The notes beneath the pieces are model-generated. The model saw only the letters and a program-made list of their open reading frames with translations. It was not told where the DNA came from and searched no databases. This document shows, piece after piece, positions 1-59,634 of a stretch of 64,000 nt of DNA. Origin of the DNA: Planctomycetota bacterium (GTDB lineage: Bacteria > Planctomycetota > B15-G4); assembly GCA_029245865.1 (NCBI GenBank), contig JAQWOM010000009.1, positions 86,398 through 150,397 on the forward strand. The letters are read 5' to 3'. The position numbers and the translations under genes were made by a program. Position 1 is the first letter of the stretch; the number at the start of each line of letters is the position of its first letter.

Positions 1-167
1 CAGTCGCCTGTGCGGACTCCTGGTCATCCCAGAATCCATCGCTGGACATCAGCGCCTCAAGCTCCACCTTCCGGCGGCCCAGTGCCTCCGCGTCAAAGAG
101 AATCCTTGATCTGGTTCAGGCGACGGCGGATGTCGAGAGCGTGAGCGCGAGAATCGTCAACTGACAT
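1..167 (-). CDS. prfB: Peptide chain release factor 2, 5' part. The gene runs off the window start and is expressed through a programmed +1 frameshift.
   Basis: Minus-strand ATG at 167..165. Frame 0 reads MSVDDSRAHALDIRRRLNQIKDSL, then an in-frame UGA at 95..93 inside the heptamer CUU UGA C. The +1 frame continues DAEALGRRKVELEALMSSDGFWDDQESAQAT with no stop to position 1. This matches the RF2 N-terminus (compare E. coli ...[35 protein letters not shown]). Confidence 0.85.
92..107 (-). promoter_or_regulatory. prfB autoregulatory +1 frameshift site: SD-like AAGGAU, 3-nt spacer, CUU UGA C
   Basis: The minus strand reads AAGGAU UCU CUU UGA C. The arrangement is the same as the E. coli prfB site (AGGGGG UAU CUU UGA C): an internal Shine-Dalgarno-like element 3 nt upstream of the CUU slippery codon, followed by an in-frame UGA. 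Confidence 0.8.
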
Positions 168-481
168 GGTGCAGTCCTTCGTGGGTTCGACGAACGAAGG
201 ATCTTACCGACGCGAACAGGGCTCACGCGAGGCTCGGGTACCAATCTGCCCGCTCGACCATCGAGTGAGCCTCGCTTTGCCGTGAGAATGGGCGAAGAGG
301 CTCAATGTGCGGTTGGGCCGCGGAGAAGGCATCAAGGTGAGTCGTCGAAGGGCAACCCAACCGCACGACAGGAGAGAGCGCAGCCGAGTCTGCCGACCCG
401 GTGCCCCCCACTCTTCGTCCACGGCTCTGCTCGGCCTGAACCTGGAATCTCAGGAAAGCTCGTGGCGCAGGGAGAGGCTCG

Positions 482-1027
482 TCAACGAGCGCCTGGGGAA
501 AAGCCCCGAATCGCCGCAAGAAGGTCCTCTTCGTCCGCCAATCCCCCGACTCCGGTCTCACCGCAGGCCAGGGTTTTTTCCACGGGAGGAACAACCTCGA
601 AACGGCCGGTGCCCTTCAGAACCTCCATGTTCCTCTGAACCAGTGGGTTGTCCCACATGGCGGTATTCATTGCCGGCGCCAGCAAGATGGGCACATCACG
701 ATGAGCTGCGAGAATCACCGTCGAAAGCAAATCGTCGGCCATCCCATGGGCGAAACGCGCGAGGCTATTCGCTGTCGCCGGCGCCACCACAACGAGATCC
801 GGCCAGCGCGCCAGGCGAATGTGGTCAATCTCCTCGGTCGACTCATCGAAAAGCGAAGAACCCACGGGGCGACCGGACAGCGTGGCAAAGGTGAGAGGCG
901 TGACAAATCGAGTGGCTGCTGGCGTCATGACGACAGAGACCTCATCGCCCGCCTCGCAAAGGCGCCGAACGAGGTCGCAGGCTCGATAAGCAGCGATTCC
1001 ACCGCAAACCCCAAGCAGGACTTTCAT
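482..1027 (-). CDS. coaC: Phosphopantothenoylcysteine decarboxylase (flavoprotein, stand-alone CoaC)
   Basis: 181 aa. MKVLLGVCGGIAAYRA...PAMNTAMW is the flavoprotein/CoaC N-domain pattern of Dfp. The start ATG overlaps the coaB stop (ATGA at 1024..1027). Confidence 0.85.
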   Translation of the reverse strand: MKVLLGVCGGIAAYRACDLVRRLCEAGDEVSVVMTPAATRFVTPLTFATLSGRPVGSSLFDESTEEIDHIRLARWPDLVVVAPATANSLARFAHGMADDLLSTVILAAHRDVPILLAPAMNTAMWDNPLVQRNMEVLKGTGRFEVVPPVEKTLACGETGVGGLADEEDLLAAIRGFSPGAR

Positions 1028-1683
1028 GAGAGCACCTGCCCGCGATCCGCACTGCCTACAGGCCCGGCGTCGCGACTCAGTAACTGCGCCAGCCCGGTCG
1101 CAATCGCAGCCTTGCCATCAAAGCGTTCCCGCATGCCCTCTGGCCCCACGAGCAATGCCTGATGGTCTTCTTCTCCTAGCTGCGTCACATCGTTTGCCAG
1201 GACCCAGTTCAGTTGCGCTCGCGTTCTCAGCGCCTGGGCGGCCTCCACTCGCTCGGCTTCCGTGGCGCCGGCCGTGAGCTTGAATCCCACAATCCATGCG
1301 TCCTGAGCCAACCCCCGCAGCCGGTCAATCAACTTGGGTGCCCGCTTGAGATGAAGCGTCATCGTCTCGGCATCGGACGAAAGCTTTCCGGATTCGCGAA
1401 TCGGCAAGTAATCCGCCACTGCAGCGGCATGAAACACCGCATGCACATGTGGGACATGCCGATCCAGCAAGCCGGACAGCTCCTCCGTGGTTTCAAACTC
1501 CACGCACTGTGCGGGTCCATCTGGCCTCGCAGCTCCCTTCCCATGGAGCAAGGTCACCTGGTGGCCATGATCCGAAAGAGTGTCTGCCAACTGCGCACCG
1601 AGTCGGCCTGTACTGCGATTCGTCAGAACGCGCACATCATCGACAGGTTCCCGGGTTCCACCGGATGTCACGAGGACATGCAC
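1024..1683 (-). CDS. coaB: Phosphopantothenate--cysteine ligase (stand-alone CoaB)
   Basis: 219 aa. VTSGGTREPVDDVRVLTNRSTGRLG and ANDV motifs match the CoaB half of Dfp (E. coli [25 protein letters not shown] ... ANDVS). Confidence 0.85.
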   Translation of the reverse strand: MHVLVTSGGTREPVDDVRVLTNRSTGRLGAQLADTLSDHGHQVTLLHGKGAARPDGPAQCVEFETTEELSGLLDRHVPHVHAVFHAAAVADYLPIRESGKLSSDAETMTLHLKRAPKLIDRLRGLAQDAWIVGFKLTAGATEAERVEAAQALRTRAQLNWVLANDVTQLGEEDHQALLVGPEGMRERFDGKAAIATGLAQLLSRDAGPVGSADRGQVLS

Positions 1684-1697
1684 CAGCGTGACTCCGT

Positions 1698-2441
1698 CTA
1701 CTTCGTCTGCCGGTAAGAGCCATCAACACTGAAAGTGTTGGTGTCTGGATTGCTCGACGTGACCAGCACGTCATCCAAGGCCCAGATGCCTCCCACCTGG
1801 CCAGTTCGCCGCAGGAAGTGGATGGAAGAGACGCTCAATGTCGCCACGCTTATCGTTCCCGAGGCTGTGACCTCGTCCGAAGAGCCCTTCATGATCAGCT
1901 TCCACTTCTGGCCGCCGAGCGAGTTCGTCTCCAGCGTGATGTGCACTTGCACGCCCACTTCGCCCGACCCCAGGGGCAGTTCGACAACCTGCCCACCGAC
2001 AACCACATGTCGATCGTCCTTGAACTGGAGACCCAGGATATCCGTGTCTCCCACATCCGAGAGAATCACATCAAGGTCACTGAAGTTGCCGATCGCCTCG
2101 AGAGTGAAGGTGACGTGCGTGGTCTGAGCCGTGACCGGCTTGGTCAGCTGGCAAATCAGGTCAGCATCCACCGAACCGGGGTTCGGTTGAATCATCACCT
2201 CGCCATCTTCAGGCACCGGGAAGGCGACCTCGAAAATATTCAGTGGCCCCTGAACAGTTGCGGAACCGCCAAACGCCTTCCAGGTCTGATTGCCACTTCC
2301 GGTCGGAAGTCCCGGCTCGTTGAAACTCGCGAAGTAGTTGAGCGTCCCAGACCACATGAAACCGGAGACCGGCAGGCAGAGCACGGCCAAGGCCAGCGCT
2401 GCAGGCAACAACACGCGGTTGCGGGAGGTCAGGAGTCTCAT
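1698..2441 (-). CDS. Hypothetical secreted protein (signal peptide)
   Basis: 247 aa. N-terminal MRLLTSRNRVLLPAALALAVLCLPVSG is signal-like. No recognizable family. Lies immediately downstream of the giant kinase/sigma-54 activator gene on the same strand. Confidence 0.55.
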   Translation of the reverse strand: MRLLTSRNRVLLPAALALAVLCLPVSGFMWSGTLNYFASFNEPGLPTGSGNQTWKAFGGSATVQGPLNIFEVAFPVPEDGEVMIQPNPGSVDADLICQLTKPVTAQTTHVTFTLEAIGNFSDLDVILSDVGDTDILGLQFKDDRHVVVGGQVVELPLGSGEVGVQVHITLETNSLGGQKWKLIMKGSSDEVTASGTISVATLSVSSIHFLRRTGQVGGIWALDDVLVTSSNPDTNTFSVDGSYRQTK

Positions 2442-2606: not shown

Positions 2607-5600
2607 CTAGACGTTCAGCCTCTCGATCATCTTGTAAAGACTGCGCACGCTCACTCCCAGAGAGCGAGCGGCCTGAGCCTTATTTCCATCAGAAACCATC
2701 AATGCATCCCGAATCGCCTGGCGCTCAAAGTCATCCAAACGAGCTTTCAACGGGTTTTCCGAGGCTTCGGCCTGATCCGGGAACTCGGCCCTCGCGAGCT
2801 CTCCGAGCCCCGCCGAGGGTTCGCCCCCTGCGTCTCTGACCTGCATGGCCTGGCGCACGGTGTCCACATCAATCCGTCGGTCATCCCGCCCAAATAACAA
2901 CATCGTCATGACGAAATTCTCGAGTTCGCGGACGTTGCCGGGCCACGCATAGCGCTCGAGCAGCGCCAAACCCTCGGCCTCAAGCACGATGTTCTTGGCT
3001 CCGTGTCGTTCGAGAAAATGGGGAACCAGCAAAGCGATGTCCTCGGAACGCTCGCGCAAGGGCGGCAATTCGATACGGGCCACGTCGAGCCGGTAGAGAA
3101 GGTCCTCTCGGAATTCTCCCGTCTCAATCATCGCCCGTAGATTTCGGTGCGTCGCGCAAAGGATGCGTACATCCACCTTCCGCACTTCGCGTCCACCCAC
3201 CGGAATGAACTCGCCTTCCTGAAGAACGCGCAAAAGGCGTTTCTGAACTTCGAGGCTCATGTCCCCGATCTCATCCAGAAACAACGTTCCTCCATCGGCC
3301 TGAGCAAACAGGCCATCGCGGTCTCGGTCTGCGCCAGTGAAGGCGCCTCGCACGTGACCAAAAAGCTCACTCTCTGCCAGATTCTCCGGAAGCGCGGCGC
3401 AGTTAAGCGTCAGGAAATTCTTGTTCCGGCGCGCCCCGTTGAAATGAATCGCACGAGCCATGAGCTCCTTGCCCGTGCCACTTTCGCCGTAGATCACCAC
3501 CACGAAATCGGTGTCTGTCACACGGTCCATCATGTCGAGAAGCGCGTGCATACGAGGGCTTCGCGTGACGATGTTTCCATAGTCGTAACGCAAGGCCAGC
3601 GCGCGCCGACTGCTTTCGAGAGACTCTCGAGTCTCTTCAAGCTCAGCTTCCCGCTGCTCAAGTCGCTCCTGAAGTGCGTCATTCAGGCGATCGACTTCCT
3701 CGCGACTCGAACGAAGCTCCTTGTTCGATTGATTCAATCCATCTGAGAGCCGCGCATTCTCAATGGCAATCGCGGCCTGTTCAGAAAGCGAACTCACCGT
3801 GGCGAGGTCGCTCGCCTGGAAGCACCCGACCACTTGAGGGTGATCAAGATAGAGAGCCCCCAAGATGCTCGAGCGCCCGCGCAGCGGCACACAGAGGATC
3901 GAGAGTAGCTTCAACTCCGTGATACTCGCGGCACTCGCCAAGCGCTCGTCATCAATGGCATTTGCCGTGAGCAACGATTCCCCTCCGCGAGCAACCCCCC
4001 GGGCCACTGAATGGCTCACCTGAAAGTGCGGGTCGCGAATGGTGCTTTCGTCAATATTACGAGCAGCGCGAAACTCCTCGGCCTGCCCCTTGAACAGAAT
4101 GATGAACCCGCGCGCCGCGCCTGTGAGGTCAATCGCACTGTCGACGATAAGGTCGAGTAACTTCTGGTCATCGCGTTCGGTGGCCAGCAGCTTGTTGATC
4201 TCGACAAGCCGCTCGAAGTCCCGCATGCGGCGCGCCATGGCACCGAGTCCGTTGCTCTCCGTATTGTCATCCATGGCGGCGATCCGCTGCTCCAGTTGTC
4301 TCAGCGTACCCTCAAGCGGCTTGAGTCCGAATCGATCGACCAACTCTCGGATTCGATCCCCATCCGGAACAGCTCGTGAAACGAGATCTCCGATGAGAGC
4401 AAAATCTGGGTCCTCATTGTCACGAGTCTCATGAAGTCGGCCGAGGTCCAGCTTGAGACGCTCAAGGAGCACACGTGCTTCGACGGGCCCCGAGGGCGTC
4501 TCGCCGAGTATCGCAAGCGCCAGGCTGAGATCCTCGTGGGCCTCCTGGATCTTCCCGTCTTTCACACGTGATTCAGCCCGAGCCAGTGCGAGGTCTGCGA
4601 CCTCCGGACAGCGCTCCATGGCAGCAATATCCTCGTTTTCCAGGTTGGAGCCACCAGACCGTGCGAGGAGTTGAAGCGCCAGAATTCGCTCCGTATCGAC
4701 CCCACGCGATTCCGCCAGGTCGTGCGCGTGGGAGGCAGCAACAAGAGCCTCCTCGGAACGGCCCTCGGCCAGAGCCAACCCCGCCGCCAAGAGACTCCCC
4801 TCAGCTTCCCAGCCCCGACCATCGACTTCTTCTGCGCACTGCTGCGCACACAAGAGATCTGCTCGAGTTCCCTCGAGGTCACCGCGGGCAAGTCGAATCG
4901 GTCCGCGAGCCAAGGCAACCGCTGCGCGGCCCCCTGCGTCCGCCTTTTCGGTGCGAATGCGGAAGCTTTCCTCGAAAGACTCTTCGGCTTCCTCAAGGCG
5001 CCCCTCTGCCGCCAGTGCCATCGCGAGATTGTTCAAAGCACGCGCCACCTGCACCTCGTTGTCCATGGCCCGCGCCAATCTCAAAGCGCGATCAAAGAAC
5101 CGCCGTGCCGCATCCACACGACCCAATTCCAGACTCGACGACCCGGCACCAAACAACACCGTGACAAGCCGATATCTCTGCCCATAGACATCGCAAAGGC
5201 GCACAGCTTCTTCCTGGAGTGCGAGGCCTCGCTTACGCTCCCCACGTTTCCACACTGCGCGCCCGAGGTCGAAGGTCACGCTCCAGCGGTGTACATCCAG
5301 TGAGAGCGTGTCGATCATGCCCAGGCAACGCTCATGGGTCCGTATTGCGTCCGATGGATTTCCCAGGCGGAACTCAAGCGTGGCCAATCGATGCAGGAGC
5401 GTGATGGAGCGAAAAGACTCAACATCCCCCTGCCTTCGGAGGGCCTCTCGTAGGTCAGCCATGGCTTCCTCTAATCGGCCAAGGCGTCGCAGCAAATCAC
5501 TCCGCAACTGCAAGCTGAAGACAGCTTCTTCCTGCTCCAAGCCCTCCAGGTCGAGAGCGCCCAACAACTCGAGGCCGTCCTCCACCTTCCCGGTCATCTC

Positions 5601-7709
5601 CAGAATGCGCGCCTGGGAGAGCGCCCATGACCAATCATCTGGCATCTCGGCACGAGCAACATCGAGAGCTTCTTGCGCTTCCTCGAGCCGCGTCGCAAGC
5701 GTCAGCGCTTCGATCAATTCGCGATGAAAGCGACCTCGCTCAAGACTGCCCAGCAGACTGCCGTCGAGCCCCCGTCGCAGCAAGGCCGTCAAACGTTGAT
5801 AGCGCCCCAGGCGGCGGAAAACAGCCGCGGCGCGCAAGACGACTTGCGCCACCTCGGCAGACTCAGTGCCACCCCCCGACTCATTCATGGACGAAGAGTG
5901 CTCGCCCAAGATCTCAGCCACTGCCGAAGCCAGCGATTCGGGCAGCGGCGCGAGAGCTTCAAGATCTACGGACAAGCCCTGGTCGCTTCCCCCTTCAGCG
6001 TCGTGCTGCTTGACCAGTTGCAACGCACAAGCCTCACGCAGGTCAGGGCTGAGGGGAATATGTGCAAGAAGCCGCCGGCGCAGCCGCCCATCCGACAACT
6101 CGTACATGGGCTCCGGGTGCAAGGCCGGCTGAAATGTGAAGCCTGCTGCACTGATCTCAGACAACGCTTCATCCGTCGCCGGACCGAGCAGCGCATGCAA
6201 CGTCGATCGCCGAAGAGACCAGGGGCTTACAGCCAACAAGGCCAGCAGTTCGCGACCATCCAACGACACGCCCTGCGCCGGATCGTCCCCTTCTGACATG
6301 GGCCAGCTTGCATCAAGCCGGCTCTCGTCATAACTGAGCCCTGCAGGTCCCAGGCCAACAACACCGGTGCGCACAAGTTCTGCCAACGCGTGACCCAACT
6401 CTTTCCATCGTTGTGGAGTCGCTGCCGTCAGTCGCTCTTCGAGGAGTTTCCGCTCGCCTAGCCATGCGCGACAAACAGCACGAGCCTCTTCATCCGTGGG
6501 TGCCGGCTCCAGGTAGACGGTGACACGCGGGATGGCGCGCAACGCTTTTTGCACCGCCTGTTGTTCCGCATCACCAGAAAGTCGTGCCCCTAGATCCACG
6601 ACCAACGGCCCCCTCTTGGCCAAGGCTTCCGCAAGCAGTGCGATCTCGGAGGGCGAAGCTGGAAACGAGGCCTCTTCTCCCAATCGCGCCTGCACCACCT
6701 CGCCCGGCTCGGGAAGGCTGGCAGCGTAATTCAGCAAGATCTCTTGTGCCTCTGACATCTCGAAGGGGCCGCTCGGTGCCAGGTGAATCGGCATCGCCCC
6801 GGACTTCAGCGAAGCCACCCCCCTCGCCCGACATGGGTCTGCCGCCGTCCGTGCAGACCAGAGTTGGGTGTACAACTGAGCGTCCGCCAAGACCCGGGCT
6901 TCTCGCTCGTCGTGAACTGGCAAAGAAGCCATGGCCGCTGCAGCATCAGCCGGGCGAGAGCTTGGATCTGGAGCCAGCAGTCGCTCCAGCAAGACCACCA
7001 GAGCGGGCTCTCCCAATCGCGCAGCGTCATCCTGAGTGAAGCCCGTGAAAGCAGATCGCTCAGCCGCCATCGCGACCGGGTCACGACCGACAAACAACCT
7101 TCGACCCAGGAGAGCTTCCGTCAACAAAAGCCCCGCCGCCCACAGATCGCTGGCCCGAGAAGGCACTCCACCAGCAAACAACTCCGGCGCCATGTTCCGC
7201 GGCGTGCCAGCGAGCGAGCAATCCGCGACCTCGCTCTCCAGGCAGGCCAGACCAAAATCGATCACAACCGGGTGACCGGTTTGCAGCTCCAGCAAGACAT
7301 TGCTGTCTTTGAGATCCCTGTGAAGCAACCCGGCAGAATGAATCGCCCCAACCGCCGAGAGGAACCGCGCCACGAGCACGCGACGCGCACCCTGATCGAC
7401 CATCTCCGGCCCCAGGGCTCCAGGGCCGAGAGGCTGCCCTCTCACTTCACTGGTGATAGTGAACAGATCCCCTGTCGCCGGATGACGGCCCGCATCCAGG
7501 CAGGCTGAAATTCCGGGATGACGAAATCCCAAGAAAAGAGTCTCGGTGAGCCCTTGCTCTTCTTCGAGAGCGCCCTTGTGCGATTTGAAGACAAGGTGTC
7601 GACCACTTGCATCCCGTGCATGGCGTAATCGAAGTGTCGTGTCCTCAAGAGGACCCAACAGAAGATAGGGGCCGAGACGTTCAGAAGGAGGAGGACTCAT
7701 AATGCTCAC
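2607..7709 (-). CDS. Multidomain regulator: Ser/Thr protein kinase - linker - TPR repeats - GAF - sigma-54 interaction AAA+ domain - Fis-type HTH (1700 aa)
   Basis: Single uninterrupted ORF. N-terminus has kinase motifs HRDLKDSNVLL, DFG and APE (about nt 6880-7670). The long middle is TPR-like and helical. GAF-like segment (LTGAARGFIIL...AIENARL) at about nt 3800-4300. Sigma-54 activator domain with Walker A GESGTGKE, intact GAFTGA (ESELFGHVRGAFTGA) and Walker B FLDEIG at about nt 2880-3620. C-terminal HTH (KAQAARSLGVSVRSLYKMI). Confidence 0.85.
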   Translation of the reverse strand: MSIMSPPPSERLGPYLLLGPLEDTTLRLRHARDASGRHLVFKSHKGALEEEQGLTETLFLGFRHPGISACLDAGRHPATGDLFTITSEVRGQPLGPGALGPEMVDQGARRVLVARFLSAVGAIHSAGLLHRDLKDSNVLLELQTGHPVVIDFGLACLESEVADCSLAGTPRNMAPELFAGGVPSRASDLWAAGLLLTEALLGRRLFVGRDPVAMAAERSAFTGFTQDDAARLGEPALVVLLERLLAPDPSSRPADAAAAMASLPVHDEREARVLADAQLYTQLWSARTAADPCRARGVASLKSGAMPIHLAPSGPFEMSEAQEILLNYAASLPEPGEVVQARLGEEASFPASPSEIALLAEALAKRGPLVVDLGARLSGDAEQQAVQKALRAIPRVTVYLEPAPTDEEARAVCRAWLGERKLLEERLTAATPQRWKELGHALAELVRTGVVGLGPAGLSYDESRLDASWPMSEGDDPAQGVSLDGRELLALLAVSPWSLRRSTLHALLGPATDEALSEISAAGFTFQPALHPEPMYELSDGRLRRRLLAHIPLSPDLREACALQLVKQHDAEGGSDQGLSVDLEALAPLPESLASAVAEILGEHSSSMNESGGGTESAEVAQVVLRAAAVFRRLGRYQRLTALLRRGLDGSLLGSLERGRFHRELIEALTLATRLEEAQEALDVARAEMPDDWSWALSQARILEMTGKVEDGLELLGALDLEGLEQEEAVFSLQLRSDLLRRLGRLEEAMADLREALRRQGDVESFRSITLLHRLATLEFRLGNPSDAIRTHERCLGMIDTLSLDVHRWSVTFDLGRAVWKRGERKRGLALQEEAVRLCDVYGQRYRLVTVLFGAGSSSLELGRVDAARRFFDRALRLARAMDNEVQVARALNNLAMALAAEGRLEEAEESFEESFRIRTEKADAGGRAAVALARGPIRLARGDLEGTRADLLCAQQCAEEVDGRGWEAEGSLLAAGLALAEGRSEEALVAASHAHDLAESRGVDTERILALQLLARSGGSNLENEDIAAMERCPEVADLALARAESRVKDGKIQEAHEDLSLALAILGETPSGPVEARVLLERLKLDLGRLHETRDNEDPDFALIGDLVSRAVPDGDRIRELVDRFGLKPLEGTLRQLEQRIAAMDDNTESNGLGAMARRMRDFERLVEINKLLATERDDQKLLDLIVDSAIDLTGAARGFIILFKGQAEEFRAARNIDESTIRDPHFQVSHSVARGVARGGESLLTANAIDDERLASAASITELKLLSILCVPLRGRSSILGALYLDHPQVVGCFQASDLATVSSLSEQAAIAIENARLSDGLNQSNKELRSSREEVDRLNDALQERLEQREAELEETRESLESSRRALALRYDYGNIVTRSPRMHALLDMMDRVTDTDFVVVIYGESGTGKELMARAIHFNGARRNKNFLTLNCAALPENLAESELFGHVRGAFTGADRDRDGLFAQADGGTLFLDEIGDMSLEVQKRLLRVLQEGEFIPVGGREVRKVDVRILCATHRNLRAMIETGEFREDLLYRLDVARIELPPLRERSEDIALLVPHFLERHGAKNIVLEAEGLALLERYAWPGNVRELENFVMTMLLFGRDDRRIDVDTVRQAMQVRDAGGEPSAGLGELARAEFPDQAEASENPLKARLDDFERQAIRDALMVSDGNKAQAARSLGVSVRSLYKMIERLNV

Positions 7710-54516: not shown

Positions 54517-54594
54517 TGGTAGTCCCAAGGGGATTCGAACCCCTGTCTGGTGCGTGAGAGGCACCTGTCCTAGACCTGACTAGACGATGGGACC
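54517..54594 (-). tRNA. tRNA-Glu (anticodon CUC)
   Basis: Cloverleaf read on the minus strand: acceptor GGTCCCA / TGGGACT (G1-U72 wobble), D-arm GTCT-AGTCAGGTCTA-GGAC, anticodon stem GGTGC/GCACC with loop CTCTCAC (U33, C34-U35-C36), T-arm AGGGG-TTCGAAT-CCCCT, and encoded ACCA. The D-loop and anticodon arm closely resemble bacterial tRNA-Glu. Confidence 0.8.
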
Positions 54595-59523: not shown

Positions 59524-59560
59524 GGTGCGAGCCACCGAGAAGGCCTGAGAAGTTCCGCGT

Positions 59561-59634
59561 GGTTCCCGAACTTGGATTCGAACCAAGATCGCCGGTTCCA
59601 GAGACCGGTGTCCTGCCGTTGGACGATTCGGGAA
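59561..59634 (-). tRNA. tRNA-Gln (anticodon CUG)
   Basis: Minus strand: acceptor TCCCGAA / TTCGGGA (U1-A72), U8, D-arm GTCC-AACGGCA-GGAC (G18G19 present), anticodon stem CCGGT/ACCGG with loop CTCTGGA (U33, C34-U35-G36), T-arm CTTGG-TTCGAAT-CCAAG, discriminator A, encoded CCA. Confidence 0.75.

Follow-up and report, generated by a model that had tools for sequence, protein, structure and literature searches.

The 5′ part of prfB, which encodes release factor 2 (RF2), lies at the left edge of the window (the whole stretch of 64,000 nucleotides from a Planctomycetota bacterium that was analyzed here), and almost certainly has an autoregulatory +1 programmed ribosomal frameshift of the classical type. 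The assignment is based on direct observations: the sequence has the anatomy of such a site, both frames encode RF2, the site is conserved, and the coding phase changes there. The features are listed in Table 1.

The gene is on the minus strand. Direct reading of positions 1..600 gives ATC AAG GAT TCT CTT TGA C for the sequence up to the stop, and bears out the coordinates in the initial annotation for the shift site CTT TGA C (98..92) and the hexamer AAGGAT (107..102). The frame-0 ORF from the ATG (167..165) is MSVDDSRAHALDIRRRLNQIKDSL, with 24 residues, and is terminated by a TGA (95..93). The C that follows this TGA is a weak termination context. The +1 frame, from GAC (94..92), reads DAEALGRRKVELEALMSSDGFWDDQESAQAT. 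It has no stop down to position 1, and the initial annotation was correct in describing it as open to the window edge. The same annotation stated that the list of ORFs missed the site and contained only unrelated short ORFs there. The +1 piece is indeed absent, because the list never includes ORFs that extend past the window, but the 24-residue frame-0 piece (93..167) is included, at the 20-residue minimum, and this ORF is not an unrelated one.

The N-terminus, MSVDD...DIRRRLNQIKDSL, can be aligned with two full-length RF2 proteins annotated by NCBI (P0010 and P0012) and with those of all eight close relatives (see below). The likely initiation Shine-Dalgarno (SD) sequence has a predicted pairing energy of −5.4 kcal/mol with the canonical anti-SD, and CGAAGGA or CAAGGA is found at the same place in four of the relatives (L083, L084, L086, L088). 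The window contains 55 codons of prfB; residues 56–365 are taken from near-identical contigs and a database protein, which may belong to a different genome.

Table 1. Coordinates of prfB features and of other annotated genes in the window
Feature	Position	Strand	Description or basis
prfB start codon ATG, frame 0	165..167	minus	Read from sequence; N-terminus aligns with full-length RF2
Frame-0 coding part of prfB, codons 1–24	96..167	minus	Last codon Leu CTT; ORF and translation
Shift site CTT TGA C	92..98	minus	Slippery CUU-U 98..95; in-frame RF2-specific stop TGA 95..93; C 92
Spacer TCT (Ser), 3 nt	99..101	minus	E-site codon when the shift occurs; direct reading
Internal SD-like hexamer AAGGAT	102..107	minus	Pairing with the 3′ tail of 16S limited to AAGGA (107..103)
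+1-frame coding part of prfB	1..94	minus	From GAC (Asp25), runs past the window edge; translation
GAAGGA, likely initiation SD of prfB	175..180	minus	7 nt before ATG; putative function
coaC (PF02441 Flavoprotein)	482..1027	minus	Second in gene order
coaB (PF04127 DFP)	1024..1683	minus	First in gene order
tRNA-Glu(CTC)	54517..54594	minus	With tRNA-Gln, the only Rfam/ARAGORN matches in the window
tRNA-Gln(CTG)	59560..59633	minus	With tRNA-Glu, the only Rfam/ARAGORN matches in the window

RF2 identity of the two frames

The initial annotation proposed that the minus strand encodes the RF2 N-terminus in two frames, joined at the shift site. The joined 55 residues match only prfB/RF2. Their sole match in NCBIfam is TIGR00020 (prfB), with an E value of 2.9e-4 over profile positions 3–45. 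A comparison with the PDB finds RF2 chains only, and the alignment spans the junction, with SLD positioned opposite SLD.

The sequence beyond position 1 was obtained from other assemblies, by an exact-sequence look-up of the product of a neighboring gene (482..1027, minus strand). This look-up gives two metagenome contigs from ENA (L001 and L002) and one JGI contig. The ENA contigs differ from positions 1..1100 of the window at 2/1100 and 1/1100 bases, respectively, and both extend beyond position 1. The window, L001 and L002, three independent assemblies of near-identical DNA, all have the same shift site. As the initial annotation had expected, the +1 frame continues as RF2 in both contigs, reaching the SPF motif in L002. 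A protein search gave a JGI protein of 332 residues (P0001), which starts at a GTG (67..65), is 100% identical over the overlap and contains the GGQ motif, in GGAGGQHVNKT. An uninterrupted RF2 in frame 0 was also looked for. Frame 0 has at least five additional stops after the TGA in the extension contigs, and a tblastn search of the window with the composite protein (described next) finds no second RF2, only the pieces at 167..96 and 97..2. Neither of the two results that the initial annotation had set as a refutation was obtained.

The composite RF2 has 365 residues, with 24 from the frame-0 part, 9 from the junction to the GTG, and 332 from P0001. It scores 500.4 bits on the TIGR00020 prfB profile (cut-off 370) and covers positions 3–353 of 353, as compared to 258 bits for prfA. 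The SPF (Ser204-Pro205-Phe206) and GGQ (Gly249-Gly250-Gln251) motifs are both present, as they are in E. coli RF2. The two proteins share 48% identity over residues 12–363, and the alignment is ungapped at the junction, where Leu24-Asp25 are opposite Leu25-Asp26 of E. coli RF2.

The gene is split if the frameshift is not modeled, as the initial annotation had predicted, and gene callers start a truncated gene at the GTG (67..65). Most metagenome gene callers make this truncated call for the gene family. The calls could be taken at face value, in which case there would be two separate products and no frameshift, a 24-residue peptide and a shortened RF2 that initiates at this GTG. Proteins of the P0001 type (332 residues, from VELEAL...) are the usual output of metagenome pipelines. 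However, conservation as an RF2 N-terminus extends over the 24 residues as well as the 9 residues (DAEALGRRK) that separate the site from the GTG, and the joined N-terminus aligns across the junction with the prfB profile (positions 3–45) and with solved RF2 structures. Moreover, the called start varies among the relatives (products of 326–338 residues), and is therefore a caller artefact. Two separate products are highly improbable on this evidence.

The gene should be annotated as a single CDS with ribosomal slippage (join at 96/94, minus strand), neither as a pseudogene nor as an RF2 truncated at GTG 67. The composite, above the cut-off and with full-length coverage, behaves as expected for TIGR00020, a prfB model of the type 'exception', and for the ribosomal-slippage annotation of PGAP. 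There is no difference in kind from these known cases.

The motif statistics are of two kinds. The heptamer CTTTGAC occurs 6 times in the window, with 8.6 expected, and by itself is not unusual. The longer pattern AAGGA-N4-CTTTGAC occurs once, with 0.01 expected; this pattern was picked after the site had been seen. Judged from the sequences, the proof of the prfB site is homology rather than motif statistics. An exact search with 72 nt of the contigs of GTDB representative genomes gave no match.

Conservation of the shift site

Eight close relatives (L083–L090) were obtained by exact-protein look-ups of the closest database proteins. Their RF2 proteins are 62–87% identical to the composite, and all of them have the same coaB-coaC-prfB-purH neighborhood as the prfB gene analyzed here. 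In comparison, the order in E. coli is recJ-prfB-lysS. The initial annotation had called for a comparison of the site across relatives. CTT TGA C is kept at the homologous codon in 8/8, preceded by DIRRRLNQIKDSL and followed by Asp in the +1 frame. The spacer codon is TCT or TCC. Two proteins of relatives that are labeled as Planctomycetota bacteria (P0010 and P0012) are already full-length RF2 in the NCBI annotation, and the gene for P0012 has 1102 nt for 366 residues, which indicates a slippage join.

The substitutions among the eight relatives follow the two coding frames. The minimum numbers of substitutions at codon positions 1/2/3 are 8/5/15 upstream of the site, in frame 0, and 53/38/63 downstream of the site, in the +1 frame. 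When the substitutions are counted in the wrong phase, the excess at the third position is gone and has moved to the wrong position. The third-position excess switches phase at the site, and hence the coding phase changes there.

When the search was extended to GTDB representative genomes, at least 80 loci were obtained, from Planctomycetota, Verrucomicrobiota, Lentisphaerota, Bacillota and others, with identities of 56% or less among the matches listed. In 62 of the 90 loci collected in total, CTT-TGA/TAA-C precedes an RF2-like +1 frame. The stop at these 62 sites is TGA in 57 and TAA in 5, and U is found at position −3 in 55/60 sites. The loci that do not have the site include uninterrupted prfB genes, for example those from Victivallaceae and Lentisphaeria that match from query residue 1.

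The five sites with CTT TAA C (L043, L064, L071, L076 and L079) are from Lachnospiraceae and Clostridiales MAGs. They represent 8% of the 62 sites, all from one Bacillota group. A published survey gives a frequency of 1.4% overall for TAA at the prfB shift site, and describes it as not being fixed in any particular clade (PMC12421855, section 6).

Frame breaks near the edges of contigs or windows are a common artefact, and the gene callers do split this gene, with P0001 called from an internal GTG. It could be argued from these observations that a one-base insertion, in a pseudogene or as an assembly or sequencing error, has broken a once-continuous prfB. However, the site is identical in the three independent assemblies, and CTT TGA C is located at the homologous codon in eight diverged relatives as well as in dozens of loci from other phyla. 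The substitution pattern is of the coding type in both frames. In addition, the break coincides exactly with the canonical motif (PMC12421855). A pseudogene or indel is already effectively refuted by these data, and its probability is close to nil.

The frameshift site in the window is similar to that of E. coli K-12 prfB (b2891), whose annotation joins two pieces and whose sequence at the site is GTT CTT AGG GGG TAT CTT TGA C TAC GAC. A prfB shift site is defined by a premature stop around codon 25 that RF2 can read, TGA or more rarely TAA but never TAG. CTT TGA C is located at codons 24–25 here and codons 25–26 in E. coli, which places the premature TGA at codon 25 and codon 26, respectively. 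In both genes, a purine-rich hexamer precedes the site by exactly 3 nt, and GAC (Asp) is the codon that follows in the +1 frame. On the other hand, the E-site codon is UCU here and UAU in E. coli, and the stimulators also differ, with AGGGGG(U) forming 7 base pairs (−10.7 kcal/mol) in E. coli and AAGGAU forming 5 (−5.2 kcal/mol) here.

The prfB frameshift, through which most bacteria control RF2, is already known, and its presence here is scientifically ordinary. The motif has been reported in 64% of 12,753 genomes, with the consensus AGGGGG-N3-CTTTGAC and TGA as the stop in 98.6% (PMC12421855, sections 5–6). The window adds one further lineage for a mechanism that has been surveyed in more than 12,000 genomes.

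The probable frameshift mechanism and the internal SD-like element

The slippage itself, the feedback by RF2 and the size of the SD contribution are inferred here by analogy with the literature on E. coli, B. subtilis and F. johnsoniae. In the published mechanism, the peptidyl-tRNA(Leu) slips at UGA-C, and RF2 regulates its own synthesis (PMC12421855, introduction and sections 5–6; PMC10798248, introduction). Translation of the window gene would start at ATG 167 and proceed for 24 codons in frame 0. When CUU with its Leu-tRNA occupies the P site, UGA would be in the A site. This stop is read only by RF2 and is followed by C, which would make termination poor. With plentiful RF2, termination at the UGA would release the 24-residue peptide. 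With scarce RF2, the ribosome would pause, the peptidyl-tRNA(Leu) would slip from CUU to UUU, and GAC (Asp) would be the next codon. Translation in the +1 frame after the slip would produce the 365-residue RF2. As termination competes with the slip, RF2 would limit its own synthesis. The tryptic peptide predicted for the junction after a +1 shift is DSLDAEALGR (or IKDSLDAEALGR).

The initial annotation described the internal element as an SD-like AAGGAU, as in E. coli. The position of the hexamer, 3 nt upstream of the shift site, is indeed the same, but only AAGGA can pair. Its 5 base pairs have an energy of −5.2 kcal/mol, as compared to −10.7 kcal/mol for E. coli and a median of −10.6 kcal/mol over the 62 sites; the energies assume the canonical 16S tail, which may not be that of this organism (the window is without an rRNA gene). 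At other Planctomycetota loci that were fetched, the corresponding sequence is CGGGAC, with about −4 kcal/mol.

It is possible, though rather unlikely, that AAGGA is a working stimulator as in E. coli, pairing with UCCUU-3′ of 16S rRNA as long as CUU occupies the P site, and raising the frameshift efficiency substantially. The proposal is restricted to the role of the SD and leaves the frameshift as such untouched. The position of the hexamer is identical to that of AGGGGG in E. coli, and the five bases of AAGGA do not vary among the eight close relatives, in contrast to the sixth, non-pairing base, which is either T or C. The same motif is located 7 nt before the ATG of prfB and is kept in several relatives. 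SD usage is moderate in Planctomycetota, which suggests that the anti-SD is probably free (PMC10798248, discussion), and a 16S tail of ...CCUCCUUA-3′ would permit the pairing.

Several observations argue against a substantial contribution, however. The pairing is limited to 5 base pairs, and 33% of random 15-mers from the window pair with the canonical anti-SD as well as AAGGA does. The bases of AAG GAY also encode the conserved residues Lys-Asp, with the codons preferred at 60% GC. The 13 codons before the site show synonymous conservation in 8/13, as compared to 12/82 (p = 7e-4), but when the codons are matched for the degeneracy class of the amino acid the numbers are 6/7 and 21/32, and synonymous constraint is not clearly elevated. 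The register of AAGGA:UCCUU on 16S rRNA, as derived from the sequences, is off by 1 nt from that of E. coli, and the spacing is a known critical factor. Finally, most Planctomycetota are classed as being without the element, and frameshifting works without it (PMC10798248). The AAGGA motif is probably a weakened remnant of an SD-like stimulator that adds little.

Two other features were discounted, one as evidence for an extended nucleotide element and one as a stimulator. The excess synonymous conservation that would suggest an extended nucleotide element beyond CTT mostly vanishes after the matching by degeneracy class. A local hairpin of 7 base pairs between AAGGA and the slippery site would have both of its arms inside the ribosome with CUU in the P site. 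The complementarity itself (109..93, minus strand) is UCAAGGA-UUC-UCUUUGA, including one G-U pair, and is probably incidental, as the slippery CUUU resembles the anti-SD UCCUU. Folding of the RNA from 200..1 (minus strand) gave a z score of +0.41, with no significant structure around the shift site. An Rfam search of positions 1..600 with a permissive E value, and of the whole window at the gathering threshold, did not assign the site to any RNA family.

A degenerate or absent SD at prfB sites has been described for Planctomycetota, Firmicutes_A/B, Cyanobacteria and some Flavobacteriales (Naeem et al. 2024, PMC10798248). Planctomycetota often have a degenerate SD at this site, and an SD is not indispensable for frameshifting (PMC10798248, section 12 and discussion). 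The site in the window is similar to these degenerate sites, with an intact slippery site and stop and a weak SD, and its pairing energy is in the band of weaker SDs (−7 to −4 kcal/mol). It differs from them in that this clade retains a recognizable AAGGA instead of a complete loss. The window is thus a further case of a published puzzle, the retention of the frameshift in Planctomycetota with a degenerate SD stimulator.

The composition of the window is mildly unusual in this respect. The GC content is 60.4%, and the stops of 45 non-overlapping ORFs of at least 150 residues are TGA in 32 (about 71%), TAG in 11 and TAA in 2. High usage of RF2-specific stops is associated with loss of the motif, not with its retention (PMC12421855, section 11). 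This high-GC, TGA-rich profile is therefore tied to motif loss, yet the motif is kept, with a weak SD. SD-like pairing upstream of the candidate starts of 43 window ORFs showed no enrichment (p = 0.39), in a comparison with low power and uncertain starts, and this null result is not taken as proof that the SD goes unused.

The retained frameshift in this lineage might rely on something other than the canonical SD duplex. One candidate is a short duplex between AAGGA and UCCUU, at the very 3′ terminus of 16S rRNA and in a register nearer to the P site by one nucleotide than that of E. coli, and another is the invariant nascent peptide DIRRRLNQIKDSL. A putative conserved leader hairpin that encloses the initiation SD (see below) could add a second layer of control. 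We regard this proposal as speculative and its probability as low.

Leader region and neighboring genes

The prfB leader can form a hairpin between CCUUCGU (200..194) and ACGAAGG (182..176) on the minus strand, which encloses the initiation SD GAAGGA (180..175). Hairpins that enclose the SD are also predicted for the leaders of four relatives (L083, L084, L086 and L087), with different stem sequences. The leader of L086 has a longer stem, via GAUUCG/CGAAUC, and that of L087 has GGAG as the SD. The z scores of the leader hairpins are between −1.1 and −3.0, and RNAalifold finds no consensus structure for the eight prfB leaders. A conserved −10-like sequence, TAAGAT (206..201, minus strand), is located just 5′ of the hairpin, and the hairpin may therefore be at the very 5′ end of the prfB mRNA, with the transcript expected to begin near C200.

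The two halves of CoaBC (Dfp) are separate, overlapping genes here (482..1683, minus strand), and the split coaB-coaC arrangement is kept in 8/8 relatives. CoaBC is usually a fused enzyme, in which the two domains come in the opposite order to the coaB and coaC genes here.

Searches with Rfam and ARAGORN found no gene for tRNA-Leu or 16S rRNA in the window. Pfam has no match for the ORF of 247 residues (1698..2441, minus strand), and its translation has a hydrophobic N-terminus. It adjoins an ORF of 1700 residues (2607..7709, minus strand), which contains a Ser/Thr protein kinase, TPR repeats, GAF domains, a sigma-54 activator AAA+ domain, and a C-terminal HTH, with the Pfam families taken from the syntenic gene in one of the close relatives (L083).
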